A stretch of 64,000 bases of DNA from Candidatus Omnitrophota bacterium (GCA_038222225.1 JBBRHV010000006.1:1626-65625), one strand, 5' to 3'; positions 1-58,805 are shown, counted from the first letter of the stretch. The notes: a model not told the origin generated them from the sequence alone. A program made the numbers and translations.

Positions 1-2
1 AG

Positions 3-3000
3 TCTGATCAAAGGCCCAATTCTTCAGAGCCACTAGAAAACAATAAAGCGGTTGTTTCCAAGCTTCTGGCCGGGGTTGTGGTTCTGGTGAGCTTGGTATG
101 GCCGCTTGTTTTGTCCAAGGCCTTTGTATCAAAATATCTGGCGTTCACGCTTTGGGGCACATTGGGAGAAGGATATGTTTGGCAGCTCCTCACGTACAGT
201 TTTCTCCATACGAATCCTTTGCATTTGACCTTCAATGTGATCGCGTTTGTTTTCTTCGCGAATTTCATAGAGAGGGCAGTGGGGGTCAAAAGATTTTTGA
301 CTCTCTTTATCGGAGCAAGTGTTGCCGGAGCAGTCTTCCAGGTGCTGGCAATGGCCGCAAACAGTTTCACCTCGCCGGAATTAGCGGAGGCACTGGATAT
401 CACTCCTCTCATCGGACTCTCAGCAGTAGTAGCCGGGCTGATCGGAGCCTTCGGCGTTGTGCTGCGTGATCAGAAAGTGACATTCTTACTGTTGTTCATT
501 ATTCCGTTCCGCATCAAGGCGCAGCGGTTGGCGCAGATGTTGGTCACCGTCAGCATTGCGGCGATCATTTTCAATATAGTTCGCGGGGCCCAGGGCGGGA
601 TCGCCCACGGGGCGCACCTCGGCGGGCTTATTTTTGGTTGGGTTTATACGGAATATTTGCGGCGTGCAGGAAAGATCGATACGTTCATTATTGAAGAGGA
701 GAAACCCAAGGATCCTTCCGGAACCAACGCGGCGGTATTATCCAACTCAGATCCGGAAGGGGGAGTTGTTTCTTATCCGGCCCGTTCCAGCATCAGCGCT
801 GAAGAAAGGGAAGCAGCAAAACAGGGTACGGGCCCGGAAAATCTCAAGGGCTATGTCGTCAATTCACGGAAGATTCTGGGCGTTCCGGTTGAAGGTCTTG
901 AGATCAGTTATTCGGACCGCAGCGGACAAACAGTTGCTGAATATAAGCCGGGCCGTGTTGCCATTGATCTTTTGGGCCTTGGAGCCCGGGCGCCGCCGAT
1001 CGATCTCGAGCATTCTGCAAAATCCCGTCGCTTCCAGAGCATTATTCATGATGTTGTACGACAAATTATATTAGCTTCTCATTATTATGCCCTTTCAGAG
1101 AAAGATGTCCGTCAGGTTTCAGCCCGGCACTTTATCGGCCGGCAGCAAAAAGTTCAGAATTTTCTGGATCAGGAATTTAATCTTCGCGAATTCGGTCTGG
1201 TGTTTGATCCTGCCTATCTTGAGCTTTTAAGAAATTACCAGAGAATTGATCCTCAAATCGAAAGAATTAAAGAGCAGCTTGATCTCTTCAAGGGCGGGGC
1301 TGTGTCGTTTGAAGAGCTGTGTGAAGCTCTGGATGCGCGCGTTATTCTGAATGTGGCATCGCGTGCCTTATTTGAAGTGGGGAACAGTCCGTACCTGGTT
1401 AAAATTTACCGCGGCGGAACGCTGACGGCGAAGGCGTATGCCGCCGAAAAACAATTTTATAGAGAATATAACCCAACGGTCCAGCCGGAGCTGGTTTATT
1501 GTGATGACAATCTGCAGGCCTTGGTTGTGACGGATTTGAACCAGCTGGGATTGGTGCGCATGTTTGATTTTATTCAAGGGCCGTTCATTACGGAAGAATT
1601 GTTGGGTTGTTCGATTTCTTCCATGGCCCATGCCTTGGCGCAGCTGCATAGCAGCGCTGACGTGGCCTCGCAAACCGGTGAGCGGAAATTTGCTGAACTC
1701 AGGCATGAAGTGGACCGGGCGGTGGAGGTCTTAAGAGCGGCCGGGTTCCAAGGCCTTCCCGATGGAAAGAGCCTGGAGGATTTTCTTGCGCGATTCCAAG
1801 ATTCAGTAGTCGGAGAAAATGAACGATTGGTTCACGGCGATTATCTGATGTGGAATATTTTTGTTGACCCGGCAAGCGGAGAGGTGCGGGCCCTCATTGA
1901 CGGTGAGATGAGCGGTCTTGATTCTGCCGCTAAAGAGATGGCGAACACGATCCTGGGATTGATCGATGCCCGCAAGAATCATCCGTTCTTAATCAGTCAA
2001 ACTGCGGAGATGTTACGGTCGTTTTGGAGAGAATATATCCGGGAGACGAAAGACATTACCGGGCAGGAGATTTCTCCGGCGTTTGAGACTCGGGTCCATT
2101 TTTATTGCGCGGTCCAGTTGCTGATTGGCGCCAGAGTTGCGCATGAGAAATGGGCTAAATGGGCCCATTTCAGAATTGAGATGGCCAGGTTTTTCCTTAA
2201 TCAGGAAGCATTTTCATTGGAAGCTTTCATTGAGTTTTTGAATCATAATATTGGCAAACAACCGATCGGTTGGGTCGGGAATTTTGATGTTGCGACTCAG
2301 CACGGGCAGAGGCCGGGCTCGGGCGTTGAGATAATGATTGATGAAACAGGTTGGGCTGATTTCTTTGCCGAGGTTTGGGTTCCAGGAAACATCGGGGATC
2401 CGATTTTTGCATTGGGTATCGGAGCGGAATTACGTGTGACAAACAGAGACACCGGCGTTGTTTCGATTTGGAGGCCAGTGGAATTTTGTCATTTTGCGGG
2501 GAATAATTATCAATTTAGAGGAAGCGTGTTTTATCTCCAGGCGGGATCGTATGATGTGGAACCATCCTTCTCAGCGGATATGGGAGAAACGTGGTTTATT
2601 CCGCAACTCCCTTATGGCCCGTGTCATCTGACAGTGACAAAAGCATTGTCTGGGGAAGCGCCTTCAGAAAAGATAGTGAGTGTGGTCTTTTCTGACCTTC
2701 ACGGTGAGTTGAATGGTTTCCGTTCAGCGCTTGTAAAGCTCGGTATGATTTTACCGCAAAATAACCCGATGGAAGATATTTGGATTTCTCAAGATGTGAC
2801 GGTGGTTGTGGATGGAGATATCATGGATCGTGGTTTGCGACAGAAAGAGTTATACCACTATATCTGCCATCTCATGTTGACCGCCGAAGAAAGCCGTAAT
2901 CGGGTCATCTTTATCTTAGGAAATCATGAGCTGCTTCATCTTCAGGGGACTCCGGATGATTGGACAGCTCATGCGCTTACAGAAGTGATTAGAGAAGGTA

Positions 3001-6000
3001 TTCTTCGAGGAGATATTGTGGCAGCCGCGTATCTAGGTGGGCGTCTGATAGTTCATGCGGGAATTTTACCTTTTATTACCATGGATTTGATAAAGACATT
3101 ACGCCCAGGATTTTTGACTGTCGTTGCCCATCGGTCAGGAAAGTTCGTAAAGGATCTTACCGCGGTTGAAGTTGCCATCGAATTGAATAAAACACATAGC
3201 GTTCTTTCTGCTGACTCTATCGTGAATGAATTCAATCGGAGATTGCGGTTGGCGGTTGAGAAAGGCGATTATTCTGACGTTATTTTCCAGAGAGGGAACG
3301 CTCATTTTGGCGAGAACAAAAGGCCTGGAGAGTCGGGATATATACCCGGAGGCATATTCTGGGCAGACTATGAAAACGAATTGCGGCTGGTTGACCCGCG
3401 TGCGCTTATAGCGCAGATCGGAGGACATAGGGAGGGGAATGCGCTCCGTTGGACAAAGGGAGCCAGGGCTGTGAACGTCAATCTTTGTTATAAAGAGGGA
3501 TTTGGACGCAGCTCCGGAGTCGCTGTGTTTGATGGACAAAACTGGAAAGCTGTTTATTTTGATGGCCGGCCCATGCAAATTATTCCTGCTGTTATGGAGC
3601 GTGCTGTAAAACGACAGACAACAAATTCGGCAGCAGGTCAAGGCGGAACCAACGCGGCTGTTCTTGAGGGTGCGCCTTTTGAAGAACCGGAAACGGGTCG
3701 GATGAGCAGGCGAAGCATGCTGAAAATGCTGGCGCTGGCAGGAGCAAGCTTGCCGTTCATGACAACGACTGCTTTTGCTGATGAACCGACGGTTGATGAA
3801 GTTTTGACGGAACTTTTGAGCACTCAAACAGCGCATGGCCTCATTAAGAGTTTCAAGGGCACAACCGATACCTTCATGCAGAATCAGGCCGTGACCTATG
3901 ATCAGGCAGCCGCCGGGATCGCAGCTCTTGCGGCCGGAAGGACGGCGGAAGCGGTCAGGATTTTTAATTTCTTTTATAACCAGCATAATGGAGGAGATCC
4001 TGTCTGGAACGGGTTTGTGAATATGTATGATGCGACCCGCGGGGTCAAGGGCAACGAGCGCACGATCCACACAGGCCCGAACATCTGGATGGCGATGTTC
4101 AGCCTTCATCTTTATATGGCAAGCAGCGGTCAACAGGCCACGAAGGCCTTGACCCTTGCCAAAGCGCTCATGCAGTGGGCCAGGGGTTTGAATCATCGCG
4201 ATGGAGCGGTTGCCCTTGGACCGGTCCCCAATAATAATATTTTCTCAACAGAACATAACCTTGATTATTTCGCCTTCCTTAAAGGAATACAGTCGTTTTT
4301 GTCCGCGGCAGAAGCGGCGATCGTTCAAGCAGAAATGGACGGGGTTGGAACATGGTTAAAGACACATGCTTATGACCCGGCCAGAAGATTGTTCAAACGC
4401 GGAGCATATGAAAACCCGGTTGTCTATGCTACAGATACGTCAAGCTTTGCATTTTTATTGGGATCGCAGGTTCTGGAAGATTGGGGCATTGTTCGCTCAA
4501 CATTCATCGGCCAGTCCGATGCTGCCTATCGTGTCGGGACACGCGGTTTTGATGTGGCGAGTGTCGAGAACGCCAATTGGACCCCGCGTTCACGTTATGT
4601 CTTCAGAGAGTTTACTCTTCAGATGGCGGTAGGATTTTTGGTGATGGCTGATGATGAACACGATCGAGGCAATTTCACGCTGGAAAAAACGTATCGTGAT
4701 AAGGCTCAGCTCTATGCTTCTCAATCTGGCATAGATGGTGATTATCAATATTGTGAACAGACCGGGGTTCAGCTCTTTTATGATATTCCGAGCTGGAAAA
4801 CAATTAATGGTCAGTCGGCTTCGGTCATGGCCTGGAAGATATTTGCACTTCTCGGTTTCAACCCGTTTGGATTTGTTACAAAGGTGCGGCTGTCCGTCAG
4901 GCGTCTGGCGGCAACTGGAAATATGGAGTTGACTTTGCGCAAGGAAAGTATGGCGTCGCTCACTGCCGAGATTCTTTATTCAGATGACCTGGGAGATCAG
5001 AAAGAATGGAAGAGCGCCGGTTCAGTGGATTTGAGCGGCCTAAGGGCGGTTTGGGTCGATAACGGTTCTCAGACCACAACACATCCGTCGCAAAGCTCAA
5101 GGAGATTCTACCGAGTCTCGGCTGTAAATTCGTCTGTCCAGGGATTGGGCGCAGTCCATCAGGAGTCTAACGGTTTAGTGCCAGAGACGGTATTAATTGG
5201 GTCAAGCGCAGAGTATGGTCAAGAGTTCAAAGATGCGAATGCAGCAGTTTTGCAGGGGAAATTTGTTCAGACAGTGAAGACCAAAGGATCTGGGCTTAAT
5301 CGCTTTGACCTCGGGCGTTGGGGACGCGGGGCACTGCATTCAGTTCTTGCGCTAACACTGCTCACATCCGGTTGTGAGAAAAAAGAGGATACCCAGGGAG
5401 ATGCGTTGTCGGGAGTCGCGGTTCAGCCTGTTGATAGGAGCGCATTGGAGAACAGGATCAAGGAAGAGGTCCGGAAACTAGAGTATTCTGACAAGAACGC
5501 GGAGGATTTTGTAACGATGCTACGTCAATGGAAGAATGCTCAAGGCCAACCGGTTCTTACTGCGTGGGAGCAGAGCATTCTTAATGCCCGGAAACAATAT
5601 GAGCAGGGAGCCATGACAGCCGATCAGTTGGCCGGGATCGAAGCCGGGGTTGTTGGAGAAGTTGCGATGAGGATCGCTGAAGAATTTTCCGCGAATAATA
5701 ATGCTTTTGAATTGACCGATCTGATTGAAAAGAAACAGTCACAGTGTGTCAGCAGGTCAATGGCGGTAGCTATCGTCGGGAATGTACTTGGATTTAAGGT
5801 TGACTTTCTTGATGTTGATGCCAAGGAGATCAGGGCGATTGACGTTCCATTGGCGGAAAGAACTGTGGCGCATGCGGCCACCCTTGTACATTTGACCGGC
5901 GGGACCGTGATCATCGCCGATTCAGCGCTACGGTTTGTAAGCCGGCCGTTTTTAATGGAAGAAACCTACGCCGCAGTCGGGAACTATTGGGAACTTAAGA

Positions 6001-9000
6001 ACAGGAACGAACCGTTGTTGCTGCATGGACGAATCAGGAAGGCGTCTCTTTTAGCAGAGATTTATAACAATCGAGGCAACGCCTATGGAAGAGCCGGTCG
6101 TTATGAGGAAGCCTTCGCGCTGATGGCGAAAGCGATGGAAATCGATCCGGCATTGGCTGCAGCTTATTACAATCGGGGAGTTCAATATCAGGATCTAGGC
6201 CGGGTAGCCGAGGCAGTGGCGGACTATACAAAAGCGATCGAGCTTGATCCAAGAGATGCTGCTCCATATTGCAATCGGGGGAATATTTACAATACCGCAG
6301 GACGGGATGCTGAGGCTGTTGCTGATTATACGAAGGCCATTGAGCTTGATCCGCAATTAGCAGTGGTGTATTTCAATCGGGGAAATATTTATGGCAGATC
6401 AGATCGGCCAGAGGAGGCGATTGCGGATTTGACGAAAGTGATCGGGCTGAATCCGGAAGATGCCCAGGCTTATTACAGGCGGGCAGTGATTTACGGAAGA
6501 GTCGGTCAGTTAGAGAGCGCCAAAGCAGATCTCTTAAAGGTGCTGAATTTAAGTTCGGATGAAAAGCAAAAAGAACAGATCAAAGCTGCTGTTCGCAAGA
6601 TTGATGACATGCTTAAAGAAATGCCTAAGAAGAGCGCATCATCCAGCCACTCTGTTAAAAACGCTGAAACCAACGCAGCGATCCTTTATCCGTCACGCTT
6701 GGTGCCTGGACAAACGCCGGACTGGGCAATAAAATTCAGAACGACGTTGCCTAGCGATTTTGTTGAGGCGGCCGAGTCAGAGGATGGAGAGCAGGGCGTT
6801 GACAAGGTCATGTCGCTGGGGATTTGCCAGGATTCGCCGGACGTCTCGGAGCTTTTATCAAGATTTTATCGAGGATTGATGGAGAATAGCAACCCATCCG
6901 AGGTCCGCAGTCATTTGATTTATGACACGTGGTTAAAACTTAAAGAGAAGAAGATGGATGAATGGAACGCGACATTGGCGGTGTGGTTTACGTATGTGGT
7001 CTTTCAAAAAGCTTTAAGCATAGAAGCAAAACGATTAGCACAAAAGAATGCTCCGGCGCCTTCTGTTGAGGCATCCACAGAAGTCGCTACAGAACCATCT
7101 TCAAAAGGGCAGGAAGAAGGGGCGTCTGCCCGGGAAGATGAGCGTTACTTGGGGATTGTGATCGAGGTGGAAGGGTTTGGCCAGGTCACACTGACCGAAC
7201 GCATCGCCCGAAACAGCCGGACGCTTCTTTTTAAGACGAATCACCCTGGGCTTTTGATCAAACTTTTTGATCTGAACCACACCAGCATCGCCGGAGCCTT
7301 TGATCCGGTGATCGTCCAGAATTTTGAATTGGAACGCAATAATTTTGTCGAGGTCGCGAAGATCGATGAGCTGAGGCCGTATATTCCGCATTATTATCAG
7401 AGCGGCATCATCAAAGAGAGCAAGTACGCTTTCATCGCCATGGAATACATTGAAGGCACGGACTTAAAGAGCTGGCGGGAACAGGTTATTAACGGACGCA
7501 GTGAAAAGACTTTGACCGCCATTGAGTTCTGGCAGATGATGTCCCAGGCGATGAGCATTTTAAGAATATTCCACAAGTATGACCTGATCTTTTCTGATTA
7601 TAAACTTGAGAATATTCTAAGGCTGGCAGACGGACGTCTGAGGTTCGTTGATCTGGGAAGTGTTTTCCTTATTCATGGCTCGATCAAACCGCAGGATTTT
7701 CCGTATTCAGCAACAATGGAGGATTCGGAAGTTTTTGAAAACGCTGTCACTTTGAAGAACGGAAAGCCGCTGGCGAAAATTTCCGATATCTTCTGTGTGG
7801 GTGTGAGCCTGTTTGAATTCGCCACAGGCCAGGACCGTTTGACGCTGAGTCGTGAATATGCGGATATGCTTTTGACTCATTTACGCGTTATCAACCCGCG
7901 GATGTCTGAAACCCGGCTGTATTTTAATTATTATCCTCATCTTAAGGGAAAATTACCGACGCTGGAAGATCAGCTGCGTGAAGGATACGTCTTTTTTGCT
8001 GATTTTTGGCATTTGCTGCACGAAGTTCTTAAATATACCCAAGACGGTTATGAAGACATGGGACAGGCTGAAAAGGATGTTGTCCTGTTGTCGGCGGGGA
8101 TCGATTTTATCCGTAAGCAGCTTGGGCCTCTGGGCTGGGTGGCAGAGCCTGTTGCCCGGGCGACAGTTCTTAGACGCGTCCGGGTTGACAGTATTCATGA
8201 TCTGCTTTTGACGTTCCACAGCCCCTTGGGAGCGGAGGTCGTTGATGACCTTCGCCGTCACAACTGTTTTGTTGGTTGTGCTGAATCACAGTTCGGACAG
8301 CAGGGTTTCGTGGAACAGATGAGCACTTGGGACGTGCGTCTGAATTCGCACACTCAGCATTGGGCGGTCCAGGCGCCGGTCGCATTCAGGCATGATACAC
8401 AAGAAGCCGGTGCGTTGTTCTTGCAGCAGACCTACACGGATGAGGATGGCCATCGGTATTATCACATCACAAGCATGGAGGAGGCGGATGAATTGCCGAA
8501 CGGGGAAAAATTGACCCTGGCGCATTTGGAGGATGATCCGTACGCTTGGCTGGGAGCTCCATCGCAGGAAGATAATCAGGGTGGAAACTCTAAGAAAAAG
8601 CCTGTTCCAGCTCCTGAGAAAGAAAAGATAGTCATTGCGGGTAACGAAAGTGAGAAGCAGAAGAAAAAAACCAAAAGAAAATCCAGGAGGCAAAAGCTTC
8701 CAAAACCGACGACACGAGAGGAGGCCATCGCGTTGCTGATCCAAGCGGCCGGACGTGTTCCTTCGAACATTGCAAAAACCCCGCATCTTGTGGCCGACTT
8801 TTCACGCGGAGAGTTGACCGCAGCCAAGATCAAGAGCATGGCAAGGCAATGGGGGATTACGGGATATGATGTGCCGATCTCGAATTTGCCTTTTAGAGCG
8901 TATTCACGGAATGCTTCTTCAGACGAGCAAACAAATTCCTCTGTTCTGAACGAAGATATTTCAAAAACCGGACCTCCGCAGGGCTTTATTCATGTGGATG

Positions 9001-12000
9001 TCCATCCGGAAATTTGTTCGTTTAACGCCCTTGCTGAAGTTCAGCATCAATTTGGGGAGCTCACCACCATTGTTGTTGTTTATAGACGAGCCGCCGCTCT
9101 TCTTCAAAGGAAGCCGGTTTATGCCTCGCGTGAAAATGATATCATCATTCATTCCGACGGGATTATTTCTCAGGATCAGCTTATTTCGAAAATAAAAGGC
9201 CCTATCGCGCGCCTGTTGGTAACCGGCAATGAATTTGAAAGCTGTGTTGCCCGGGCTGTTTTTTCCATCAGAGAATTTATGCGGGATCAATATTCTGCCG
9301 GGTTTGTCTTGGATGTTCATTTTCCGATGGATTTGATCGTTGCCAATCGTCATGACTATCGCGATGGGGGATATCAAAAGATGATCGCGAATATAAAAGG
9401 CGGGGACTTTTTCTACAGCTATAAATTTCAAGCCCGTCGGATTGCCTATGACATCTATGATGGAACCGAACTGATCTGCCCTTGTGGGGAGGGAAGCGAA
9501 AATATTTCCAATCTTTATGTATGGCCATCTTTACAGAGCATGAAAGATGAATTAAGCCGAGGAACCGGCGGGACCAACGGGGCTGTTCTTGAATCAGGAG
9601 AGGGCGGCGCCTACAAGGAATTGATTTGTCGGTTTGACATGAAAGAAGATTATGAGGCGGATGATTGGAAGGAATCACGGGTTCTTAAGCGCGTGGCACT
9701 TATGAAACAGATCAGGTTGGGTTGGAAATATCCTCAGATGGGAGAACCGTCGGAACAATGGCTCAATGAGCTGAGAGAACTCGTTCTTCATCGTCTTTGG
9801 ACAAAGCTTCAAAAAGCACATCGTGGAGACATGTTTTTCCCTCAAGACATGGTTTCTCTCAATCGGTCGCTGAATCAGCCGTTTGTTTTTATCGTCGATG
9901 AACTTTTAAAGAACGCCCTTGATGCCCAGGCCTTGGCAGGGCAAAGCGGAAATGTCCATCTTGCGAGATCGTTGCAAGGCGGAACATTCGTGATGGCGGT
10001 TTCTGATAACGGAATCGGCGTCCGTCGCCCATTCTTAGGCTCAGAGCAGCTGGCTTGTATTGAGTCTTTGGCAGATCAGCAGAAGAGACGTAATACTCGT
10101 TTGGAAGCAAGTGATGGGGCTGGATTGATCTGGGTTCAGTATCTGGTCGCCATGCGGGGAGGTAAGCTTGAAGTCGAATCTCCCGGTCGCAATGAAGCCA
10201 GGACTACGGTTGTTGTGTCCTTGCCGGCGGATGCGTTAACGGTCATTGACAAGACGGGCTTAGGTTCTCAGACAAATGCTGCAGTCCTTCAAAAGAGAGA
10301 AGATGTCGCTACGCGGTTTATTTTTAGGTTAGCTGATCATTATGGTCTTTCTTCCACTTGTGATCCGCAGGAGATCCTTCAGGTTCTTCGTGCCAGGGGA
10401 ATCTTGAGTTCAGGGGAAGAAAGGGCGTTTGTCAGATATAGAAAAATTTTAAAACAGATGTATCCGGAGCTGAGCCTTGGGCAGGCTGAAGCACGCTGGA
10501 CGGAGGGCTACACATTTTTCGGGAATAATTCTTCTGAGGATTGGGAGCTTTCCGGACTGACGGAAGATTTTACGGTCATGGTTAAGAAACACATCGAAGG
10601 GATCCGGGCCGTTGAACACACCGATCATCCTGCGGATCAGGGCTGGTGGAAGGAAGATGGGCTGAAAATAAGAGTGATCCGGATTACGGATAGTCTTGAT
10701 TTAAAGGCGGCGTTACCGAACGAAAAAACAGAAAACCTGCCGCTGTCATCTGATGATGAAAACGGTTCACTGCACCTCTTTGAGTTTTTGTTCAAGAAGA
10801 TCTTTATTGAGCCAAAATATTTTGGCCTGGTAGCTTTCAAAGAAGGAAGGCCTGTTGGTGTATATGGGGTTTTTGTTTTAAATGATTGGAGAACGATCTC
10901 TGGGCGCGGATTATATGTCGTTCCATGGGAAAGGTATAAGAAAACAAATATCGGGTGGATGCTGGTCTCAAGGATGGCGGAATTGTTCGCGCTCAATGGC
11001 TATAAGTATCTTTATATCCCTGTGGCCAACCGTCCGTCGGCGCAGAAATTTTTTGAGAACGTGTCGGACAATACTGGACGCTTCCAGTTTTTCACAGAAA
11101 CAAAACGGAACGATGACGGAAAAATTCAAAAGGTTGCTGTGAAGCTGCAGGAAAGGTTCACTCCGGTTCAATGGGACATTGATCTTAAGCGTCAGATCGG
11201 CCAAGTCAACAGCGCGGTATTAAATACGAGCCTGTTGCAGCAGGTCCAAAATATGGAGGCAATGTTTAAAGCCTATGAATCGATTCTTAGTGACCATGGC
11301 CGACAGATACACGAGAGAGTTCGAGTGGTTTTAAGAGCAGCTTCTCAAGGCGTGATGAATGCAGAGCAGCAAAAAGAAGTTCGGGCGCTCGTGGCGTTGA
11401 TGCCTGATCCGCAGCATATTGATATTGAATCCGGCGGAGAAAAGAATTGGATCCGTTGGTTTGATTTAAGCCCGGAAAGACTGGGCGCATCTTTAGATCA
11501 AAGCATTGCCGATGGATGTGCGTGGCCGTGCCTGCATTGTGCGGCGTACAATGGCCATGCCAAAACAGTGATGGAGCCGCTTCCTGTTGTGATCGCAAAA
11601 ATTTTAAGCAGAACACAAACGGATATTATTTATCCATTCCAGTTCGATCTGATTTCTTGGCGGGATCTTTTCTTTGGAGTCGGCATTTCGGGATTAGCAG
11701 AGTTTATATCACGGTATAACCCGCAATATCAATTACGGTCATTGCCGACACGAGGTTGGGATAGCGATGATGCCTTTGTTCAGAACGAAGCCCTGCATCT
11801 TGCGCAGCTTAAAATCGCTAGTGGTATGTTCATTCTTTCATTCCATCTGTGCCATCAGCGGTATGACATCTTGCCGGCTATTGCGCAGGCGGTCAGGAAC
11901 GGAGACCGTGCAGAACTCGATGCACTGATCGATGTTTATGCAGCACGTTATGCGAATGTGATCGCTACGTTAAGTCCTGCGCTTGATCGGGTCAGCGTAT

Positions 12001-45000: not shown

Positions 45001-48000
45001 AGACGACGGATCAGCCGGTCATTGAACGGATCCAGAACCGTTGGGAAGTTGGGGAATTGGAAAACATGCCGGACATTTACGAGCGCGTACCTGACCGTCT
45101 TCAGGCCCTTGCGCTGGCCCACCGCTATGTTCGTCAATATGGGCTTAAGTCGATCCTCTTTCTTGAAGGAGTCGGTCGAAGAAAAAGTAGAGAGAGAAAC
45201 GAGATCGGCGGAGTGGGCGTGGGACTTTATAACAGCCGGTATACCATCAATCGATTAGGGGGAAAGATTGATCTTGATGATACGCGCTCGGGCCGGACCA
45301 CGTTCGCGATCGGATTTTTTGTCCGGGAATTTTCATTGAGGCAAAAAGGATCGGATGCGTTTGTTAGCGGTGCTAACTCTGCGGTTTTTAGGGGATCGAA
45401 GGATTCTTCTCTTGATTCTCTGCTTGAGAGCATCATGGCGTCCCACAAAGAGAGCGGGGTGCGATCAACGCCTTGGGCTGCAAGGATGGACAAGCCGCTT
45501 GACCGCACAGGATTCAACGGGCCGCACCTTTTCGCGAATATTGAATTAACGAACGAGCAGGTTCGGTTGTTCCTTATCCTTAAAGAGCATAAACAGGCGC
45601 TCCTCAATTTACTTGGTGAAAGCTTCAGAGCTGTATTTGGGAAAGCGGCAGGGATCCTTCTTAATCAAAATGTTTCTGGATTTAAGGCAACACAGGTCGA
45701 TGAACAGTATTTAACTTGTACCGTTGGTGATCTTTTTATTCCAGCCATCGAAAATGCTTTTGATGCCTATATGAAAAAGAGCGGCCAATCATCCGATGTT
45801 CCGTTGGTTCTTGAATTTTATATTTCCTTTGATGGCCGGGTGATGATTGCGGAGATGCGCACCAATGGTCTGTCGTATGATTCCGGTGAGACCGCGACCT
45901 CCGAAAAGAAAAAGGACTCGGATCAATTGGGTGGAAAAGGGCGCGGACTGAAAGCCATTGATGAATTTGCTGCATGCATCGGCGGGATCCAGTGGGATAT
46001 CCGAAACCGTAAAGATCTTTTTCCTGAGGATGCGGAAGGATCTGTTTTTTATGTATCTCTTCAACGGGATAAGCTTTCTCAAATCGTCAGTCATGCGGCG
46101 AAGTTTTTTGGTCTGGGTTCGTGCGCGACATGCCCAGAGGATAGCGTCAGAAGAAATGCCGACGCAACGAGCAAGAATAGTGGAGCGAATTCTGCAGTCT
46201 TGAACGGAAACACGGATGATTCGACGGGAAGTGATTCTCAAAAGAAGCGCTTGGAAGATTTCTTGAGCATGGCTAAAAATTCACAGTTGGAGGCGTTTTG
46301 GTTAATTCATGAATTAAAATTGGATCAAATTGAGCGGGCCGTTTCCGTTGGCAGCGGCGTGCTTGCGTTGGCGCCGTTTGAAATGATTTTAATCGAAAGC
46401 GGTGTTGTGGTTACGATTTTTGATCCCGATCCAAACGTTCAGGAAAATTGGGCGCAGTATAAAGCGCGAAGGCTTAATGGCCATTGTGTTGACCTTGTAC
46501 CGTTATCCAGATCAAAATTTGGAAGTTCAGCACAGCCGATCCAGGGTGCGCAGATGTATATTACGATGAATGTTTTTGGTCGTTCGGGCATTCCTATGAC
46601 AGAACGTGCACAAATGTTAGGCCTCTTAGCGAAAAGTTTTAAAAACGGGGACTTTCTTTTGAATGGATGGTGCAGTCCGCTGGCGTTTGAATTGATTGCA
46701 AATTCGCCGGCACCCCAAGAGGATGTCAGGGTCGAGACCGCGCTCAATCACGAGCATATGCTGGCCTTGGTGAATCTTTTGGAATCGCGGCATATGATGT
46801 TGGAGCCTGTCCGTTTCGGCAGGAAGGAGGACGTTCTTCATCAGAGGGACTTTTATCGAATTATTCCGCTCGGATCACCGGTGATGCCGGTAGCTGATAA
46901 AAATCGAAAAAAGAAGGGTGAGCGCCAGCCTGGAAAGAGGATGTCCGAAGATAAAGGCGCCAATGCTGCTGTTTCGCAAAATAATGAAGGCGTTCCGGCG
47001 GATGATCGAGGGATCGATTGGAAAGGATTAAGGGCAGGGCTTGAGCAGGGAAGTTCCTTGTCGTTCGGCAAGGTCAAGCAGCTGATCCGGGCAGGGAACA
47101 AGAAGGTGTTTGGTCTGCTGCAATCTGTCGTCGCCGGCCACAGCAAACAAGAGGCTGCGGTTTGGCATTTTATTTTGACGGTGGATCTTGATCGGGAATA
47201 TTCAGCCCATTTGGGTTCGAACATGAGAAATTTGAAAATGGCTGTTATCCGGGCCGCGCAAAAGGATCTTGAAAAAGGCGGTGTGCCCGGGTCCGATCTT
47301 CTGGAGCAGTCTGTGTCCTATGGTGATGAAGATTCTTTGAGCGCTCTTCAAAGGGTGGCCTTCGGTGTCAGCAAAGGGAAATTCCTTGCGATCAGAGTAA
47401 TCTTTGAGGCGCAAAAGGAAAAGAGTCCGGCGTCTCCGCAAATACGGGCTGTTTGCCGGGGATTTTTGAACACGATCGCCTATAAATTAGGCGAAGGGAT
47501 CGAGAGGGATCCAGAAACGGGGTTACTCATACTTGGAGCGCTTGTTTTTGAGATGCCTTGTGAACCGATAGGGGAAGGGGCCCGCGGGATATTAAAAAAT
47601 ATCGTCGATGGGAAGTGCCGGTTGACTAAAGAGAAAAGGATTGAGGCGTTGAATTCTTTGGTGGAATGCGTTCGTGACGGAGGCTCTGTCGATTTGCTGG
47701 AGTGGATTTTGAAGGGCGTGGCCGCGCTTGACGGCAAAGGCTTCCCGCGTCTCAATAGCTGGAGCGTTCAAGAGATGCTGGGTTCGCTTTTCCACAATGT
47801 TTCGGTGGCGCCAGTATTGCGCTTGTATGCTTATGGACTGATGCCATTGCCGGAAAACGAGACCGAAGCGCTTGTATTAGCTAAACGTGTGTTACATGAA
47901 AAGGCCCATTTGACCTCCTTGGAACTATTTTCAGACAGCGGTGTTTGGCACAATGAAGAGCTTAAGGTTTATATCTTGGCCGTGTATTTGATTATGGTTG

Positions 48001-51000
48001 CGAAAATAAAAAGAAGCAGTTCCTTTTTTTCACGATGCCAGAATCAGGAAGATGACATCGACAGCATTATGACCGGCACGATGCTGAAAGAAGATTACGG
48101 CGGGATTGGTAACAGCAAGCTGCAGTTCGGGCGCAAAGATCTTATCGAGGACCGCAATGAACCGAAGATGATGTTCGGTACCTGCGCCCACGAGTGGACG
48201 CATATTTTTAACCGTTGGATTATTGAAATTTATAGGATCGAAGAAGAGGATGGACAGGATGCGATCGATGAATTTTTGGCGGATCTGGGTGCGGAAATGT
48301 TTTTTGGAGAAATGGGCTGGCAGCAGGCAAAAGAGGTGCGCCGGAATAAATTTGTATTTCAGCACGCGAAAGTATTTGGGCGGAGTCCCCGGGCAGATCA
48401 GATCAGCCATGAGCAGCATGAGGCGGCCCGTGTCGCCTATAAGGAGATGCAGCGGTTTTTGGAAGCCAGGGAAAGGGAGACCGGTGAACGCGTTCCTCTT
48501 TCTGGAGAGATGCTGTTTTATCTTTGGGGTGCTTTGGGAGAGAGGAAAGCAGAGGAGATATCGTTTGTCATGTTGCAGGATTTGCTGCAGGTCCGGTATG
48601 GTTATGCGGAGTTTGTTCATCGGCGGAAAAACAAGTTCCAGTCCCGTCCCCTCGCGGATAGCGAGATGGAAGAAAAAGGAGTAACGCAACGTGAACCTGA
48701 TAAGGACATTGTTTATGTGATCAGATGTTGGCATGTAGAGGAAGAGGAGCGCGCCGAGCTGTTTGAAGGACCAAATGTTTTACGAATTGCTGTTTCATCC
48801 GGCACAGAACCGCAGGCCAGCGGATCCCAGGATATTCAGGTCATACAAGAGGCAACAAACCCGAAGGATGGAGAAGCGCCATCTTCTAACGCCAACTCTG
48901 CGGTTTTAAACTATTGCGTCGCGTGTTTTGCCGGCGTTGTCGCGTCTCCCTGGGTCGCATTGCCGGTTGACGTTGTCGCAAGCATTGCCATGATGTGGGG
49001 AATCATTGTTATGTCTGAGGGGATCGAGATGCGGCACTCTTTAATTTTTAGGGCTCTCACCTGGATCAAAGACCGTTATGAATCACGCAAGGTCACGATC
49101 GAATTTTTGAAAATGGTCTTGAGGTTTGCAAACATGGTTGGTTTGTATGCGCTTTTATCTTTTTCGTGGGGAACGCTCATTTTGCAATGGATCTCGTTAT
49201 TAAGCATAAAGCTGGATTGGCCTGAGTGGATGACTTTTATAGCAGCGCTCCTACCGGCAGCAGCCTTCATCAGCGGAGTAAGTATGGTGGTGGTCCCGGA
49301 GATCATCCGGGTGCATAAGGAATGGAAGAGATATCTTAAGAATATCCGGGGAGATCGTGCTCCGGAATGGATGGCCCAAAAATACAGCCATATCTCCGCG
49401 GAAGAATTGCTCCACCGTTCGGTGAGGATGAAGCGTATTGGGCGGGTCTTGTTAGCTGCTGTTTGGGGAATAGGTATCATTCTTTTGGCGATGTCGTTCC
49501 AGCATGCTCCGCACATGAAAGTTCTTAAAGGCATAAGCATTGTTGTTCTGTTTTTTTATTATCAGACATTGGTTGCAGCCCGGGAAATGAAGAAAATGGC
49601 AGAAGAATTGGAGCAGACAAAAATTCTAAGGGAGGCTTCTTTAAAAGCCAACCGATCCAGGGCAGGGCCGCCGGTCAGTTCTTATTCGGATTTTAAAGGT
49701 GGTATCAATTCAGCAGTATTGAGTGAACAGAGCGAACCGGATCATACGTCTCCCAATAAAGCAATTTTTGATTTTGTTCGACAGAGTCTCGGGGATGGAA
49801 CAACCCAAACAGTGAATGAGGTGGCGGAAGCGCAAAGACCCGTGATTCTGCAGGGTGGCAGAGATCAGGCGCTTAGAGCAGGTAATGATTCTTTGCCTGA
49901 TGATTTAAGAAAAGTCAATGCCGGTTATCAAGCGGACATTTATTTCTCGCCGAGTCGACGGATGTTTTATAAGGTCAGGAAATCCACGCTGTCTGCCTAC
50001 TATAGGTCATTACGGAATCATCTTCTTGATCGCGGGCTGTTCAGAACATCGGCGTATCTGTGGATTATGGACACGCTGCGGAAAAATTATCAAAGGTCCG
50101 CTGGAATGAAGACCGTGGAGGGTCAGCCTTTTTACGATATTCTTTCGCAGGCCGGTAAGGCCGGACGGCCGAACACCGGTGTTCTTGTCCGCATAACGAA
50201 GATGCTTAAGGCCTTCAGAGCGGTTGTTAGTTTTTGTATTGTTATGGCTGGCAGTATGTTTATTTTTTCAAAGACGGTCAGGGCTGAGAAGGCGCTTTTC
50301 CATGACAATTATTTCAAGGGTTATGAGGACATGCTTAAGTTTGGGTTTGTGCAGCAAGGATATGTGGCAGATTTTCGAGTGATCAGTGTCCCTGCGGAGG
50401 ATCGGAATGGAATTTTTAAATGGAGATGGTTGGAGCGGAACCGAAAGGTCATTGAACAGTCGGAAGTGGTTGAACTGATACAGGTGTTGCGGGAAATGAC
50501 GGATGCGCAGTTTTATGTAGCGGTCGAGCGTTACATTGAGATCCAGCATGCGTTTTGGCGCTGGGGATTTTTTAATCATGCTTTGGGATTTTTGGGAAAT
50601 TATGGATATGTCAAAGATAATGGTCAGACCAACGGACCACTGGTCCTTTTTGACCCGGGAGAGATCGTTAGTAATGGTGATAACGCCGAAGATAAAATTT
50701 TGGAGGTAGTCGAGCGCAAGAAGGAAGGGGCGTATAAGGACCTCAACGCATTGAATCCAGTTTGGGGGCAGTATTACAAGGTTAGAGTTGAGGCTGAACT
50801 AAACCGCTCCAAATTTTACGAGCTTTGGTGCAGTGAAGCCGGGTGCCGGATAGAGACAATCCAAAATTATTCCACTAACGCCGCGGTCGGTTCCAAATCC
50901 CGTTTCGTTAGCCGAAAAAGGGAAAGAGAAGATCGTCCCGCGATGGCCTTGCCGAGTTGGGAAGAGTTCAAGGACCCTCGACGGTCATGGCTGGTAAAAT

Positions 51001-54000
51001 TATATATTCTTTTGGTGCGTCAGCCGGTAAGAGAAGAATATAAACTTTTAGCCGAAATATGGAGTGTTGCGGGCTGGCTTGGGGAGCATGGCGTCAATGA
51101 GAGCAATATGCATGAGCGGTGGGTTCAGGAGCTTTTGGAGCTGCGTACGACGATTAATGCTTTTACCCGGTATCCGGTCCGGTGGTTCGGCCTCTTTGGT
51201 GCAGTACTGATGTACTGGCCTGCGGTGTTCATACATTTTGTTTATAATGCCCGATGGTTGGTGCGCAGGGTTATCCGGGAGGTTTTGTCAGGGGTGAAGG
51301 GTTCGACAGCAACTGTTTTTGTCGGCGAAGCTGCCATGGTCAGAGAAAAGAAAACATCCTCGGCATATCAAGTCATTGTTGAAGAGCTTTGGAATTTGAG
51401 GAGTTTTTATCCTGGGAAGATCTATCTGCGATCAAAGACTATCCTTTGGCTGATGGTGTTCGCTGCCCGATGGATTCTCCGGAAACAGTTATCCACCAGC
51501 TCGGTCGTGGTGCTCGAAAAGAGCAATAACCAGGGTGAAATAGGAAGTGGGCATTTACGGGTTTTCCGGGCATTTGTTTTTAGTTTTGGTTTGAAGTTGG
51601 AATTATTCAGGGCAGATGAGTTTTTGCTGATATCGACAGAAGAGCAGTTTCCAGCCCAATTCGACAAGTTGAAAAATTTATATGCGATGATGAAGCCTTC
51701 CCAGGCTTTTCCCTTAATGGGGGGATGGGCGGCCTCACCGGATCTCGCTATGATCATAGTTTCTTATATCATGAAATATCGTCCAAAAGTTGTTCTTGAT
51801 TTGGGCAGCGGAACTTCGACAATCATCATTGCTCAGGCTTTGAAAAATTTATCCTGCAGCCAGTCCCGCCGCACTTCTGCGGAACGGGCAGGATTCCGCC
51901 TAACGGGTGAAAAGATTTTGGGGGCTCCACAGACAGGGCATGTGTGGTCCATGGAGCAGGACGCAGCCTATGCAGGAAAGACGCGGCAAAATTTGGATGC
52001 CCATGGGCTTGGTACTTACGCGACGGTTATTCATGCTCCGATCAGAGAATATTCGAATCACAACGGCACGGGAAGATGGTATGACGTTTCCCGGCTAGAG
52101 GGTATCGGCCCGATTGATTTGGTGATTGTTGATGGGCCGCGTGGCTCAGGTCAAAGAGCTGGGGCCATGCCGATTCTTTTTGATCATTTAAGCGATGAGG
52201 TTGCGGTGATCATTGACGACACGAGCCGGGTGGCAGAACAGGAAATGGTTGAGAAATGGCTGAGAGATTTTGAAGGGTTCCGCGCGCAGGAAATTGACAC
52301 GGAAAAGGGGACGATTATTTTAAGAAAAACAAAAGCCGCCATGGATGGCGAAGAGGCAGAGCCTATTTCCTTAGAGTCTGAAATCAATGCCGCGGTGCTT
52401 GGAAATGAATCTTCGCCTAAAGAGGATGGGACAAATCACCAGGAAAAATGGTTTTTCCGAGATGCAAAATCCGGTGCGGTCGAAGTCCATGAAATTGCCG
52501 ATGATAATGGGGAAACAATTTGGCAAGTTCTCCAGGAACAGGAAGCGAGAGAGCAACCGGTTTCTGACAATAGCGGGAATAAGATCCAGGGAGCGACAAG
52601 CGCTGCGGTGCTGGGCAGTGGAAAAGTTGGCCGCAATGATCCTTGTCCCTGCGGCAGCGGGAAAAAATACAAGAAGTGTTGTGGGGGGGCTTCCGCTACT
52701 CAACCTTTCGCAGCGCCGGCATTGAACACAAGAAAGAGCGTCGGACGATCGTTCAGGTTTATTGCCATGGCTGATGGTCAGGTTCAAGATCTTTCTCCGC
52801 CGGCAGCGTGGGAATCAGGTTCCGTGGCCGTTTCTCCCCAGCCTGTCCATGGGCGCGCTGCTTTAACCGGGACGGTCATTCCGGCCAGACTTGAGCATGC
52901 TGAGCGCATACTCGCGCTATCCAAGAGGGTCTCCTCATCTACCCCTGTTTCGATGAATGTGATCATCAGATCCATACAGTCCATAGCTGAAGATTTCAAT
53001 GGTGAGCCGAGAATTTTTGTTTACATAGAGAAGAACGTGGTCTTAGGGTATACGTTCGCTTCCATTTATCCTTCAAGGAAACTGGTTTATATGGTTCAAA
53101 CATCCGTTGATCAACAGCATGAAGGCCGCGGGATCGGACGTTATCTGCATCAGTATTTGTTTGATGTTGTGCGAAGCCAGGGACACAAAAAAATCTTTTC
53201 AATATCGAATCCTCGTGCGGCGAGCATCCTTTGTAAGGATGGTTTTCAGGTTTTGACAGACGCCCGAAAACTTCCAGTGATCAGCATTGATCTGCGCGAT
53301 GATGAAAATGTCGTATCTTTGAATGCGACGTTGGAGGATGTTCTCTGCGTGGGGATTATGCGGGTTCTTCTGCCGACCAATCTGGTTGCCATTGATCAGG
53401 CGTTAATTCATGGGGATATGCCCGGGGTTCAGCATCTTGTCCGGACGAATTTTATTTTTGCCTGGCTGCGAGCCAGCGGCATTCTTCCTTCGGATGAATT
53501 CCGACGGAAGATCATTGCGGATTTTAACAGACGAGGGGCTGGTAGGGCTATGCAGCAGAATGAAGAGACGCTGGTTGTGGCCTGTGCGGTAGGGACTTCA
53601 CAACATCCGTCCTCGAGAGATGAAAAATTATGGCAAAGGGAGGGACGTACATTGCCGGCGTCTTTTGATCCGTTAGAAGATTTTGCGCAGCATTGTGTGG
53701 ATGTTGTTTTCCACCCCAAAGAATATGAACAGAGGTATCATTCGGCTGATGAAAAAGATCGACCTCGTTTATTGGCGCAGTATGCAGTTGTGAGGGATGT
53801 TCTTCAGCAGTCCCTTCCTGGCGCAAGAGATAGAGGACAGTCTTCTGGCGGAAGGGGACAGTCCCCCCGCGGGGACAATCCCCAATCGACCAACGCCGCG
53901 GTGCAGGTTTCTGATTCCATTCCGACGCCTTTGACTTCTGAATTTATTCGAACGTTGTCCGTTGGAAAGAGAAGTGTAACGTCATCCGAAAAACGCATCC

Positions 54001-56891: not shown

Positions 56892-57002
56892 CTGGCCGGG
56901 ATTTCTATAAAATGGTTTTGGTAAAAATAAAAAATTATATGAATTTTAGATTTTATGTATAATAAGTGAACTTGCGGTTGTTTTATTAGGGATATTGAAG
57001 AC

Positions 57003-57011
57003 GAAGGAGAG
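57003..57011 (+). promoter_or_regulatory. Shine-Dalgarno sequence (GGAGAGG) for the aldolase gene
   Basis: aaggagaggaaaaa ATG: a purine-rich SD lies 6-8 nt upstream of the ATG at 57018. The 125-bp AT-rich intergenic region upstream also contains TATAAT at about 56957-56962. Confidence 0.5.
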
Positions 57012-57017
57012 GAAAAA

Positions 57018-57968: not shown

Positions 57969-58147
57969 AAGACAGCGTAAAGGGAAGCGGCAGGTGATAG
58001 AAATACAATTGAAATATAATGGAAATACATAGAAATAAGAAATTCGGAAAAAGAGAAAGCTTAATCAGAGCAAGTAATCGTTAGGGTTTTTTATTTCAAT
58101 GTATGTCTATATTTTTCCATGTATTTCAATCTGTTTTTAATTTGAGT

Positions 58148-58777: not shown

Positions 58778-58805
58778 TGTCTTGTGATGATAAGAGGCAT
58801 AGATA

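Follow-up and report, generated by a model that had tools for sequence, protein, structure and literature searches.

A recurrent linker motif in a giant open reading frame of Candidatus Omnitrophota, possibly the gene of a cellular polyprotein

Most of a 64,000-nucleotide (nt) stretch of DNA from Candidatus Omnitrophota bacterium (GCA_038222225.1, JBBRHV010000006.1:1626-65625), hereafter the window, is taken up by a single giant open reading frame (ORF) on the plus strand, with ordinary genes downstream of it. A short peptide motif built around N-x-A-V-L recurs along the product, and the segments between its copies have the size of ordinary proteins. We hypothesize that the product is a polyprotein that would be cut at this motif by a dedicated endopeptidase. 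We give this reading roughly even odds.

The giant reading frame

Six-frame translation of the window leaves frame +3 free of stop codons from nt 3 to 56888, or 18,962 codons, up to a TAG at 56889-56891.

3..56891 (+): giant ORF of at least 18,962 codons, open at the 5' window edge (frame, codon usage, Logan contig over the 3' 2.4 kb)

The remaining five frames hold 637-1305 stops each, and the longest open run among them is 1,146 nt. Under random codon usage, a frame this long would stay open with a probability of (61/64)^18962, about 10^-395, which excludes chance. Codon-position GC is the same in every 4.5-kb slice of the ORF (GC1 ~0.56, GC2 ~0.40, GC3 ~0.50), and codon usage correlates with that of six ordinary downstream genes at r = 0.74-0.86 in frame +3 as against 0.13-0.32 in shifted frames. 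The amino-acid composition of the 18,962 translated residues is ordinary. An initial annotation of this DNA had proposed a single coding frame of at least 56.9 kb amid stop-rich alternatives, and both statements agree with these results and with the independent contig described next.

Could so long a frame be an assembly artefact or chimera, in which many genes were mis-joined and their stops lost through collapse or frameshift errors? Apart from the fact that the window is metagenomic sequence, no point speaks for this explanation, and we find it scarcely credible. Mis-joined ordinary genes cannot give 18,962 codons with no stop, and composition and codon usage are uniform. DNA repeats within the ORF come down to a 180-nt tandem duplication (41104-41463) and a stretch of 149 nt that two paralogous modules share at 77%, so repeat collapse is no concern. 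An independent assembly, Logan contig SRR19962012_1784423 (4,623 nt), is 100% identical to window positions 54530-59152, which cover the last 2.4 kb of the ORF, its stop codon and downstream genes. The same gene end and synteny recur in four other assemblies (L002/L084, L082, L083 and L086), and a fragment from a relative, P0002, is collinear over ~1,400 amino acids (aa) in the middle of the ORF. Purifying selection acts on orthologous units in the relatives L082 and L084 (dN/dS 0.15-0.17). We conclude that the giant Omnitrophota gene is genuine and that its 3' 56.9 kb lie in the window, whose edge truncates it on the 5' side.

The first in-frame ATG, GTG or TTG is a GTG at nt 78, and no stop interrupts the frame between the 5' window edge and this codon, as the initial annotation had observed. 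If this GTG were the start, half of the first transmembrane (TM) helix of a rhomboid protease unit, the first recognizable protein in the visible product, would be cut off. The same annotation had described the residues ahead of the rhomboid, ENNKAVVSKLLAG (residues 12-24), as a degenerate copy of the linker motif leading into a TM helix. The pattern N-x-A-V-[LIV] bears this out: it has 29 matches in the ORF against ~1.07 expected, 28 of which are clear linker copies, while the 29th is NKAVV, at this very place.

42..56, residues 14-18 (+): degenerate motif copy NKAVV in polar context, just before rhomboid TM1 (N-x-A-V-[LIV] match)

This copy implies that the rhomboid is an internal unit and that at least one further unit lies upstream of the window. 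On this reading of the 5' residues, the gene most likely continues beyond the window with the rhomboid internal to it, and the earlier suggestion of a longer gene, itself an inference, is strengthened.

The flanks of the gene identify its host. The window's MnmA is 81% identical to that of 'Candidatus Omnitrophota bacterium RA.bin146' (JAKLFA010000005.1), the next match standing at 52%, and the flanking genes of RA.bin146 are syntenic with those of the window at 74-82% nucleotide identity. At the corresponding position RA.bin146 also has a giant ORF, open for at least 7.0 kb in its own locus (L002) and for at least 10.9 kb (3,621 aa) in an identical metagenome contig (L084), where it runs off the fetched locus; the RA.bin146 contig has room for up to ~89 kb beyond these 10.9 kb. 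Three further assemblies (L082, L083 and L086) have the same gene end followed by an HMGL-like gene and an aldolase gene. Judged by MnmA identity and syntenic flanks, the host is a member of the Omnitrophota, and the giant ORF at the same place in RA.bin146 agrees with the attribution made at the outset.

The linker motif and the units it separates

The linker motif had been mentioned only in passing in the initial annotation; it is now the ORF's main point of interest. In its strict form, N-[A/G/S]-[A/S]-[V/I]-[L/I/V/F], it occurs 44 times, against 0.88 copies expected and a maximum of 4 in 500 shuffles. With three N-to-S variants and six copies whose last or second residue is weaker, all nine in polar context, the total comes to 53. 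The residue ahead of the Asn is T, A, V or I, and the one further upstream is often G, E or Q.

42..56084 (+): 53 copies of the motif [T/A/V/I]-N-[S/A/G]-[A/S]-[V/I]-[L], 15 nt each (pattern count against shuffles)
Starts of copies 1-18 (+): 42, 726, 3651, 5238, 6672, 8934, 9576, 10275, 11208, 12378, 13638, 15387, 15852, 16746, 18174, 19374, 21006, 22158
Starts of copies 19-36 (+): 22353, 22911, 23250, 23847, 26880, 27081, 27684, 28776, 30414, 31242, 31299, 32349, 32955, 34110, 35493, 36771, 37272, 38808
Starts of copies 37-53 (+): 39201, 40209, 42240, 43386, 44598, 45375, 46188, 46962, 48894, 49707, 50877, 52386, 52599, 53892, 54573, 55059, 56070
Starts of N-to-S variants (+): 21006, 52599, 54573
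Starts of copies with a weaker last or second residue (+): 42, 26880, 42240, 46962, 50877, 53892

Conservation of the motif acts on the peptide and not on the DNA. All but one of the 44 strict copies are distinct 15-mers (43/44), the codons at each position track ORF-wide usage, the motif Ser is coded by TCN and AGY alike, and the 60 nt flanking the copies are unrelated (nucleotide identity 0.29). The Asn is present in 33 of 37 matches to x[AS][AS]VL. The 10 residues on either side of the motif are enriched in polar or disorder-promoting residues (0.74 and 0.68, against 0.54 ORF-wide) and depleted in hydrophobic ones. The motif has no copy in ~18,400 aa of flanking open frames from six loci. 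At the junctions there are no inverted or direct DNA repeats, and an Rfam search of the ORF returned 0 families, with neither ribozymes nor structured RNAs. ARAGORN calls an 87-nt tRNA-Gly(GCC) within the ORF (25332-25418, plus strand); because Rfam finds no tRNA there and the anticodon falls at position 28, this is most likely a false positive.

These properties bear on the hypothesis that the motif is a recombination scar, the translated footprint of cassette insertion (integron/attC-like, or the target of a mobile element) with no function as a peptide. Relatives do differ by 'unit + motif' cassettes exactly at motif boundaries, as described below, and 'integrative-element passenger genes' are among the hypotheses of Nielsen & Lui 2026 (bioRxiv 10.64898/2026.06.07.730766). 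However, a scar of this kind is hard to reconcile with copies that are nearly all different 15-mers, with synonymous sites that follow ORF-wide usage in both families of serine codons, and with unrelated flanks that carry no repeats. We regard it as very improbable.

The same properties bear on a second hypothesis, that of a stop-less operon, in which internal initiation after each linker or a 2A-like skip of the nascent peptide would separate the units and no protease would be needed. A few observations fit this: a Met stands exactly at the start of a Tat signal (nt 3702; see below), where the relative fragment P0009 has a Val (possibly GTG), a few units have a Met 1-4 residues from the motif, and most ordinary genes here lack a Shine-Dalgarno (SD) sequence, such that SD-independent initiation may be normal. 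Yet an SD followed by ATG is found after 4 of 44 motifs when 3.6 are expected, and Met is no more frequent there than elsewhere (0.020 versus 0.021). The ORF contains no 2A-like NPGP, and we know of no case of peptide-bond skipping on bacterial ribosomes. Internal initiation would neither select a peptide motif nor stop read-through by ribosomes from upstream, and there is no conservation of DNA or RNA around the motif, going by the flank identity and the Rfam search. A stop-less operon is, in our judgement, quite improbable.

The boundaries set by the motif are those of whole proteins and not of domains. Not one of the 53 copies lies within a Pfam envelope, against 7.4 expected by random placement (P = 0.0004), and two-domain proteins are left whole, namely alanine dehydrogenase (AlaDH) with its N- and C-terminal domains and an APH kinase joined to a phosphoesterase. 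Alignment of the AlaDH unit with solved AlaDH chains begins at residue 24-25 of the unit and at residue 2-3 of the chains. Motif-bounded units average 357 aa, with a median of 337 aa. An all-against-all BLAST of the segments finds them essentially unrelated, the exceptions being a radical-SAM-like trio and an internal paralogue of the C-terminal module. About 18 distinct Pfam families are represented with no dominant repeat, among the Pfam and NCBIfam domains HATPase_c twice and GNAT five times, and all matches lie well below NCBIfam equivalog cut-offs. By a crude predictor there are 43 hydrophobic 19-mers (Kyte-Doolittle >1.6), clustered in ~10 units. Neither a repeat protein nor an enzyme of the usual multidomain kind, the product strings together at least 53 units that are unrelated to one another and about as long as ordinary proteins, with polar, exposed linkers between them. 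Many units have no recognizable content; those that do are as follows.

57..740 (+): rhomboid intramembrane serine protease unit (PF01694, E = 3.6e-23; aligned to GlpG homologue 2nr9)
within 57..740 (+): rhomboid motifs HxxxN at 222-236, GLSAVVAGLIG at 414-446 and GAHLGGLIFG at 609-638
741..3665 (+): APH-type kinase and calcineurin-like phosphoesterase unit, 975 aa (PF01636, E = 3.6e-11; PF00149, E = 1e-7)
3666..5252 (+): unit without known fold, opening with the Tat signal MSRRSMLKMLALAGASLPFMTTTAFA at nt 3702-3779 (TIGR01409)
5253..6686 (+): TPR unit, opening with the lipoprotein-like signal GALHSVLALTLLTSGC at nt 5328-5375 (TPR families, E down to 1e-40)
6687..8948 (+): Ser/Thr protein kinase-like unit (PF00069, E = 3.4e-11)
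9591..10289 (+): HATPase_c unit (PF02518, E = 1e-7)
10290..11222 (+): GNAT unit (PF00583, E = 0.0095, weak)
11223..12392 (+): radical-SAM-like unit with CAWPCLHC at 11517-11540 (CX3CX2C motif, internal BLAST; no Pfam match at E < 0.01)
12393..13652 (+): CPBP/Rce1-like glutamic intramembrane protease unit with EEIQYR, FVAVH and HMISN (PF02517, E = 1.2e-12)
13653..15401 (+): Methyltransf_28 unit (PF02636, E = 1.4e-27)
16761..18188 (+): GT2-like glycosyltransferase unit (TIGR04182, E = 0.0086, weak; 36% over 264 aa to a unit of fragment P0011)
23862..26894 (+): 1,011-aa unit opening with an RR-containing signal or anchor, SGRRSLSVVF...ALAG at 23901-23984, kept in P0002 (signal-like only, with no match to TAT_signal models)
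28791..30428 (+): polytopic membrane unit with ~9-10 hydrophobic helices and an HPr-like domain (PF00381, E = 3.9e-7; hydropathy)
32970..34124 (+): PLP-dependent, threonine dehydratase-like unit (PF00291)
34125..35507 (+): complete AlaDH unit (PF05222, PF01262)
37287..38822 (+): unit with helix-turn-helix repeats, HTH_31/HTH_3 (Pfam)
38823..39215 (+): truncated radical-SAM-like paralogue of 131 aa, matching the N-terminal ~80-100 aa, motif-bounded (internal BLAST)
41104..41463 (+): 180-nt tandem duplication, two copies 91% identical, giving a coiled-coil-like 60-aa repeat (DNA repeat search)
43401..44612 (+): full paralogue of the radical-SAM-like unit, with CTEPCLHC at 43704-43727 (internal BLAST)
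46977..48908 (+): 644-aa unit with HExxH (HEWTH, 48189-48203), candidate metalloprotease (sequence reading; no match to Pfam or to solved structures)
50892..52400 (+): Methyltransf_24 unit (Pfam)
52401..52613 (+): 71-aa unit (motif-bounded)
52614..53906 (+): SEC-C motif and GNAT unit (Pfam; SEC-C zinc motif at 52644-52685)

The rhomboid motifs correspond to GxSx, HxxxN and AHxxGG, which we take to be the catalytic ones by analogy with GlpG, and the CPBP unit carries EExxxR, FxxxH and HxxxN motifs. Comparison with NCBIfam gives distant best matches: rhombosortase TIGR03902 for the rhomboid (31.4 bits against a cut-off of 84), MrtJ and MrtS for the CPBP unit (30 against 75 and 29 against 130 bits) and TIGR00518 for AlaDH (212 against 392 bits). 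For the TPR unit the best NCBIfam TPR matches are the lipoproteins PilW, Tgl, NlpI and GltE, all below cut-off. The motif-bounded truncated paralogue of the radical-SAM-like unit suggests that the remnants of decayed units may persist in frame.

Two oddities stand apart. The HPr-like phosphocarrier domain lies at the C-terminal side of its polytopic membrane unit, an unusual combination. The tandemly duplicated 60-aa segment (…QQVADNVRRMEFEE[R/C]KKELLASWRMM…) sits within a 677-aa unit and is the ORF's only recent internal duplication.

Cassettes, dialects and the terminal module in relatives

An exhaustive HMMER search with the terminal-type module returned 11 fragments. The syntenic ORF of RA.bin146, of which 3,621 aa were seen, has only the terminal module in common with the window (57% identity). 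Its other units (large NAD-GDH-like, nucleotidyltransferase-like, membrane, radical SAM/SPASM) are parted by TNASVL, MNSAVL, INSAVL, TNAAVL, RNSSIL and TNAAAL. Compared with L084, L082 (P0001) has one extra unit of 577 aa, inserted exactly after a motif and ending in a motif of its own. P0002 is collinear with window residues ~6729-8343 at 57-65% identity, and the two differ at the level of units in three places, all motif-bounded: P0002 has one additional GNAT unit, the window has two additional units, and in the window alone a motif has been inserted into a loop of the internal terminal-type module (see below).

21021..22367 (+): two units absent from P0002, bounded by TSASVL (21006) and TNASIL (22353) (alignment to P0002)

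We infer that whole 'unit + motif' cassettes are gained and lost as the array evolves. Because the cargo turns over fast between close relatives, it looks like an accessory set (envelope, regulatory or effector-like) rather than a housekeeping one.

The motif itself comes in two dialects. The more distant fragments P0004, P0005, P0007, P0008, P0010 and P0011 are punctuated by D-x-A-M-L, which P0011 carries 7 times in 1,657 aa against 0.03 expected, and N-type and D-type motifs are never mixed in one protein. One loop of the terminal-type module illustrates this. In the internal paralogue of that module, the window has an insertion, GGVNAAVLVP, that is missing from both the P0002 orthologue and the window's own terminal copy.

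22926..23861 (+): internal paralogue of the terminal module, split by the inserted motif GGVNAAVLVP at 23241-23270 (BLAST)

The same loop reads GGVNAAVL in the window and DKAML in P0005, so that the two lineages gained a motif here convergently and in their respective dialects. A conserved motif, variable cargo and unmixed dialects together form the pattern expected of a recognition site that co-evolves with its reader.

Longer repeated linkers occur in P0011 (L085, GCA_035477715.1 DATIKI010000204.1) at residues ~20-60, 500-545 and 1285-1350, where …SSPVPRFPGSPxRKxKTGxLGxRGTGxxExDSAML recurs before several units. The D-type junction element spans ~30-40 aa, compared with 6-7 aa in the N-type.

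The terminal module is the sole module common to all relatives found, and in every lineage seen the giant ORF ends with it.

56085..56888 (+): terminal 'M54-like' module, a small helical bundle followed by a hydrophobic segment and GRRRP

It is 57-63% identical to the termini of L084/L002, L082/P0001 and P0003. In L084 the module lies at ~10001-10864, and in P0004 (L088, 3-926) it is duplicated in tandem. An AlphaFold2 (AF2) model gives pLDDT values of 85-94 for residues ~80-160. We considered whether this module could be a protease with a Ser/Lys dyad formed by an invariant GSV and a Lys, and rejected the idea: the GSV is predicted to be disordered, the fold is a small helical bundle and Foldseek returned no match. 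The hydrophobic segment of terminal-type modules is followed by GRRRP or RKR and is reminiscent of a sorting signal. In D-type lineages, D-x-A-M-L lies inside the module, right after the invariant GSV.

Other searches returned nothing: no relative appeared in a scan of a genome collection with the N-terminal 1,212 aa or in a scan of viral contigs, and a word-indexed protein search with aa 14070-15135 and with the terminal module gave no match. As HMMER found fragments of 57-65% identity that the word index missed, a blank result from that index does not show that relatives are absent; it seems to lack the partial products of giant ORFs.

Cleavage, known systems and flanking genes

Some of the units begin as independent proteins would. 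The Tat signal MSRRSMLKMLALAGASLPFMTTTAFA starts 13 residues after the motif that opens unit 3666-5252 and scores 17.3 bits on TIGR01409 (cut-off 16.7). In P0009, a Tat-plus-lipobox signal, VSRRNFIQSIAVAGAAILASGC, starts 1 residue after TNSAVL and scores 21.6 bits on the same model. The TPR unit at 5253-6686 begins with …ALHSVLALTLLTSGC, and it is our own reading of GALHSVLALTLLTSGC/ALHSVLALTLLTSGC as a lipobox that makes this start lipoprotein-like. In the Tat and Lol/Lsp pathways, signals deep in a chain are not known to work unless a free N-terminus is close by. Tat signals directly behind motifs imply such free N-termini.

We propose that the motif is both the recognition and the cleavage site of a dedicated endopeptidase. 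The gene would be translated as a polyprotein and cut at each motif, probably co-translationally. The released units would then be sorted singly, in that cytoplasmic enzymes would stay, membrane units would insert, and units with Tat or lipoprotein signals would be exported. The motif would co-evolve with its reader, as N-x-A-V-L in the lineage of the window and D-x-A-M-L in the more distant one. Such a polyprotein would explain why the motif is conserved as a peptide and in an exposed context, why the units are protein-sized, and why the array evolves by units and in dialects. It would likewise explain N-terminal-type export signals directly behind motifs, and obligately cytoplasmic chemistries (radical SAM, NAD-dependent AlaDH, ATP kinases, HTH) that share one ORF with exported and membrane units. 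More tentatively, we suggest that this may be a true cellular polyprotein, with more than 50 unrelated proteins of an ultra-small bacterium made as one chain, a dedicated protease, a lineage-specific site and evolution by cassettes.

Which protease might do the cutting? Three units are candidates in cis, namely the rhomboid (57-740), CPBP (12393-13652) and HExxH (46977-48908) units; the protease could also be a domain encoded further 5', outside the window. The scissile bond may lie between positions +2 and +3 (P1 = Ala/Ser, P2' = Leu), although this is a guess; a small residue at +2 and V/M-L at +3/+4 in both dialects would fit a cut after +2. Work by Strisovsky and colleagues in 2009 is said to have defined a rhomboid recognition motif with a small P1 and a large hydrophobic P2' residue. 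Since P4 does not fit in the D-type dialect, we name none of the candidates as the protease.

The principal alternative, and the view favoured for many Omnitrophota giants, is that the protein is never cut. It would then be a membrane-anchored mega-protein of many enzymes, arranged as beads on a string, with the motif a short linear element in another role; this could be a handle for chaperones or targeting (the A-V-L patch), a docking site for one of the TPR units, or a conserved hinge. Published analyses take such proteins as single TM-anchored polypeptides (bioRxiv 10.64898/2026.06.07.730766), and the ~43 hydrophobic segments spread along the ORF suit that picture, as do one motif copy within a conserved module, inter-motif segments too short for proteins and the want of a protease matched to the motif. 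Passive linkers, however, seldom keep a near-invariant core of five residues in ~50 copies or switch dialect as a set. An uncut chain of at least 19,000 aa would also have to accommodate Tat and lipoprotein-type signals that need a nearby free N-terminus, as well as obligately cytoplasmic chemistries alternating with exported and membrane units. We consider the uncut protein less likely than the cut one.

Several observations weigh against cleavage. No candidate protease could be linked to the specificity of the motif, even though the rhomboid, CPBP and HExxH units have catalytic motifs; the rhomboid and CPBP scores fall far below the cut-offs of the sorting proteases that they most resemble, and the terminal module has no protease-like fold by AF2 and Foldseek. 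Four very short units (19, 65, 67 and 71 aa) would be released as peptides, and cleavage at the motif at nt 23250, within a conserved module, would split that module. The Tat match of MSRRSMLKMLALAGASLPFMTTTAFA is barely over the TIGR01409 cut-off, and on the Pfam TAT_signal model it scores 17.7 bits, below the gathering score of 22.7. Hydrophobic N-terminal segments after motifs are not enriched overall (6 versus 4.3 expected, P = 0.26), and the argument from signal peptides thus rests on a few individual units. The scarcity of Shine-Dalgarno sequences ahead of ordinary genes here makes the SD-based test of internal initiation a weak one. Finally, the relatives in which the motif was compared are all fragments.

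The giant ORF as such belongs to a known class of Omnitrophota genes. ORFs of more than 20 kb, 'poorly conserved' and with few annotated domains, were reported in 77 of 116 Velamenicoccia genomes (Seymour et al. 2023, PMC10066038), and the ORF in the window, with at least 56,886 nt open and its 5' end outside the window, exceeds that length. The statement in the initial annotation that genes of this size are extremely rare thus holds across bacteria, but within the Omnitrophota they are common. Proteins of up to 85,804 aa were described in this phylum by West-Roberts et al. 2023 (bioRxiv 10.1101/2023.11.21.568195), whose 'giant' set begins above 90 kb, and of up to 147,155 aa by Nielsen & Lui; the ~19,000 aa visible here are no size record and are not exceptional within the phylum. 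The former authors distinguish an 'Archaeovorin' class rich in glycosyltransferases, methyltransferases and peptidases, with C39 or S8 peptidases near the N-termini of such genes. The latter define 'class 1 multi-enzyme metabolic clusters', whose Pfam co-occurrence module joins methyltransferase, HATPase_c and GNAT.

With these multi-enzyme giants the window ORF shares the phylum, a length of tens of kb, many divergent Pfam families with none dominant, many TM segments, poor conservation between genomes and a suspicion of cleavage. Domain types in common are methyltransferase, HATPase_c, GNAT, radical SAM, TPR, kinases and peptidases. In the 18,962 aa visible, the N-terminus lying outside the window, there are no SecA-DEAD or preprotein-binding, C39/S8 peptidase, HEAT, NUDIX, GT5 or glycolytic domains; a SEC-C zinc motif alone is present. 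Punctuation by a motif, dialects and cassette turnover are not described in the Omnitrophota giant-ORF papers searched, in which the words 'linker' and 'polyprotein' do not occur. A literature search found no paper joining polyproteins with Omnitrophota and none on the motif in this context, and motif punctuation with cassette-wise evolution appears to be unreported.

Viral polyproteins (picornavirus, potyvirus, nidovirus, birnavirus) have a similar layout, with unrelated units in one ORF, a short junction site in exposed linkers that varies by lineage, protease domains in the same chain and, as in flaviviruses, internal signal sequences after junctions. The window ORF differs in being a cellular chromosomal gene with housekeeping neighbours, 3-10 times longer and with at least 53 units, whose cargo is metabolic, regulatory and envelope-related rather than replicative, and whose cleavage is a prediction. 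MARTX and large clostridial toxins are likewise bacterial chains of unrelated effectors, reshuffled between strains and cut in linkers at a Leu-containing site. MARTX toxins, however, have 3-5 effectors in up to ~5,200 aa, as opposed to at least 53 units, and it is the window's site that has a fixed Asn/Asp-x-Ala-Val/Met-Leu core. Pfam and NCBIfam searches of the window ORF found no Peptidase C80/CPD domain, RTX or glycine-rich repeats, or type I secretion (T1SS) context.

Sorting systems, namely rhombosortase with GlyGly-CTERM and MrtJ/MrtS with JDVT- or Synerg-CTERM, supply the best NCBIfam matches of the rhomboid and CPBP units, and the hydrophobic segment and GRRRP of the terminal module recall their tripartite signal. 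In the window, by contrast, the linker motif is followed by polar sequence and not by a TM helix and basic cluster, and the hydrophobic-plus-RRR element is not at the extreme C-terminus. We reject membership in the rhombosortase/GlyGly-CTERM system on the score of 31.4 bits against 84 and the missing TM helix after the motif. Repeat-type giant adhesins (Chlorobium chlorochromatii, the Dockerin-type Omnitrophota giants) are rejected because the only repeats are one TPR block and the 180-nt duplication. A nonribosomal peptide or polyketide megasynthase (NRPS/PKS) is rejected as well, there being no Pfam matches to condensation, adenylation or carrier domains or to KS, AT or ACP.

Whether the Omnitrophota giants are single megadalton proteins or precursors is an explicit open question, which the junction motif makes testable, with 53 predicted processing sites in the gene described here. 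West-Roberts et al. were kept from splitting their proteins for structure prediction because the cleavage points were unknown; the motif provides a rational way of dividing such proteins into units for both annotation and structure prediction. The motif junctions also show that giant genes evolve as cassette arrays, and the N-type and D-type dialects could help to find the reader or protease through co-variation. If the polyprotein reading is true, it describes a way other than the operon to co-express and exchange genes, what are called the 'largest proteins in biology' become precursors, and the motif is the first cut-site map for Omnitrophota giant genes. Were cleavage confirmed, this polyprotein would exceed all others known by a wide margin and would be the first of its kind in a cellular organism. 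Were it refuted, the motif would still mark a specific, conserved linker element in a poorly understood class of proteins.

Downstream of the ORF lie the HMGL-like gene (57018-57968), an Eda-type aldolase gene (58103-58777) and, after the aldolase, a membrane glycosyltransferase-like gene (58806-60353). Past this, the minus strand carries a HydE/BioB-like radical SAM gene, MnmA and the C-terminus of MutL. The gene at 58806-60353 encodes a polytopic membrane protein of 515 aa (GT39/ArnT-like by eye) that has no nucleotide match in the otherwise syntenic L002, which makes it a small indel beside the giant gene. An 11-nt tandem repeat, ATAGAAATACA, in 3.8 copies (57997-58037), lies in the intergenic stretch that separates the HMGL-like gene from the aldolase gene. 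On the minus strand, the MnmA and HydE/BioB-like radical SAM genes overlap by 4 nt (61465-61468), which suggests that they are translationally coupled.

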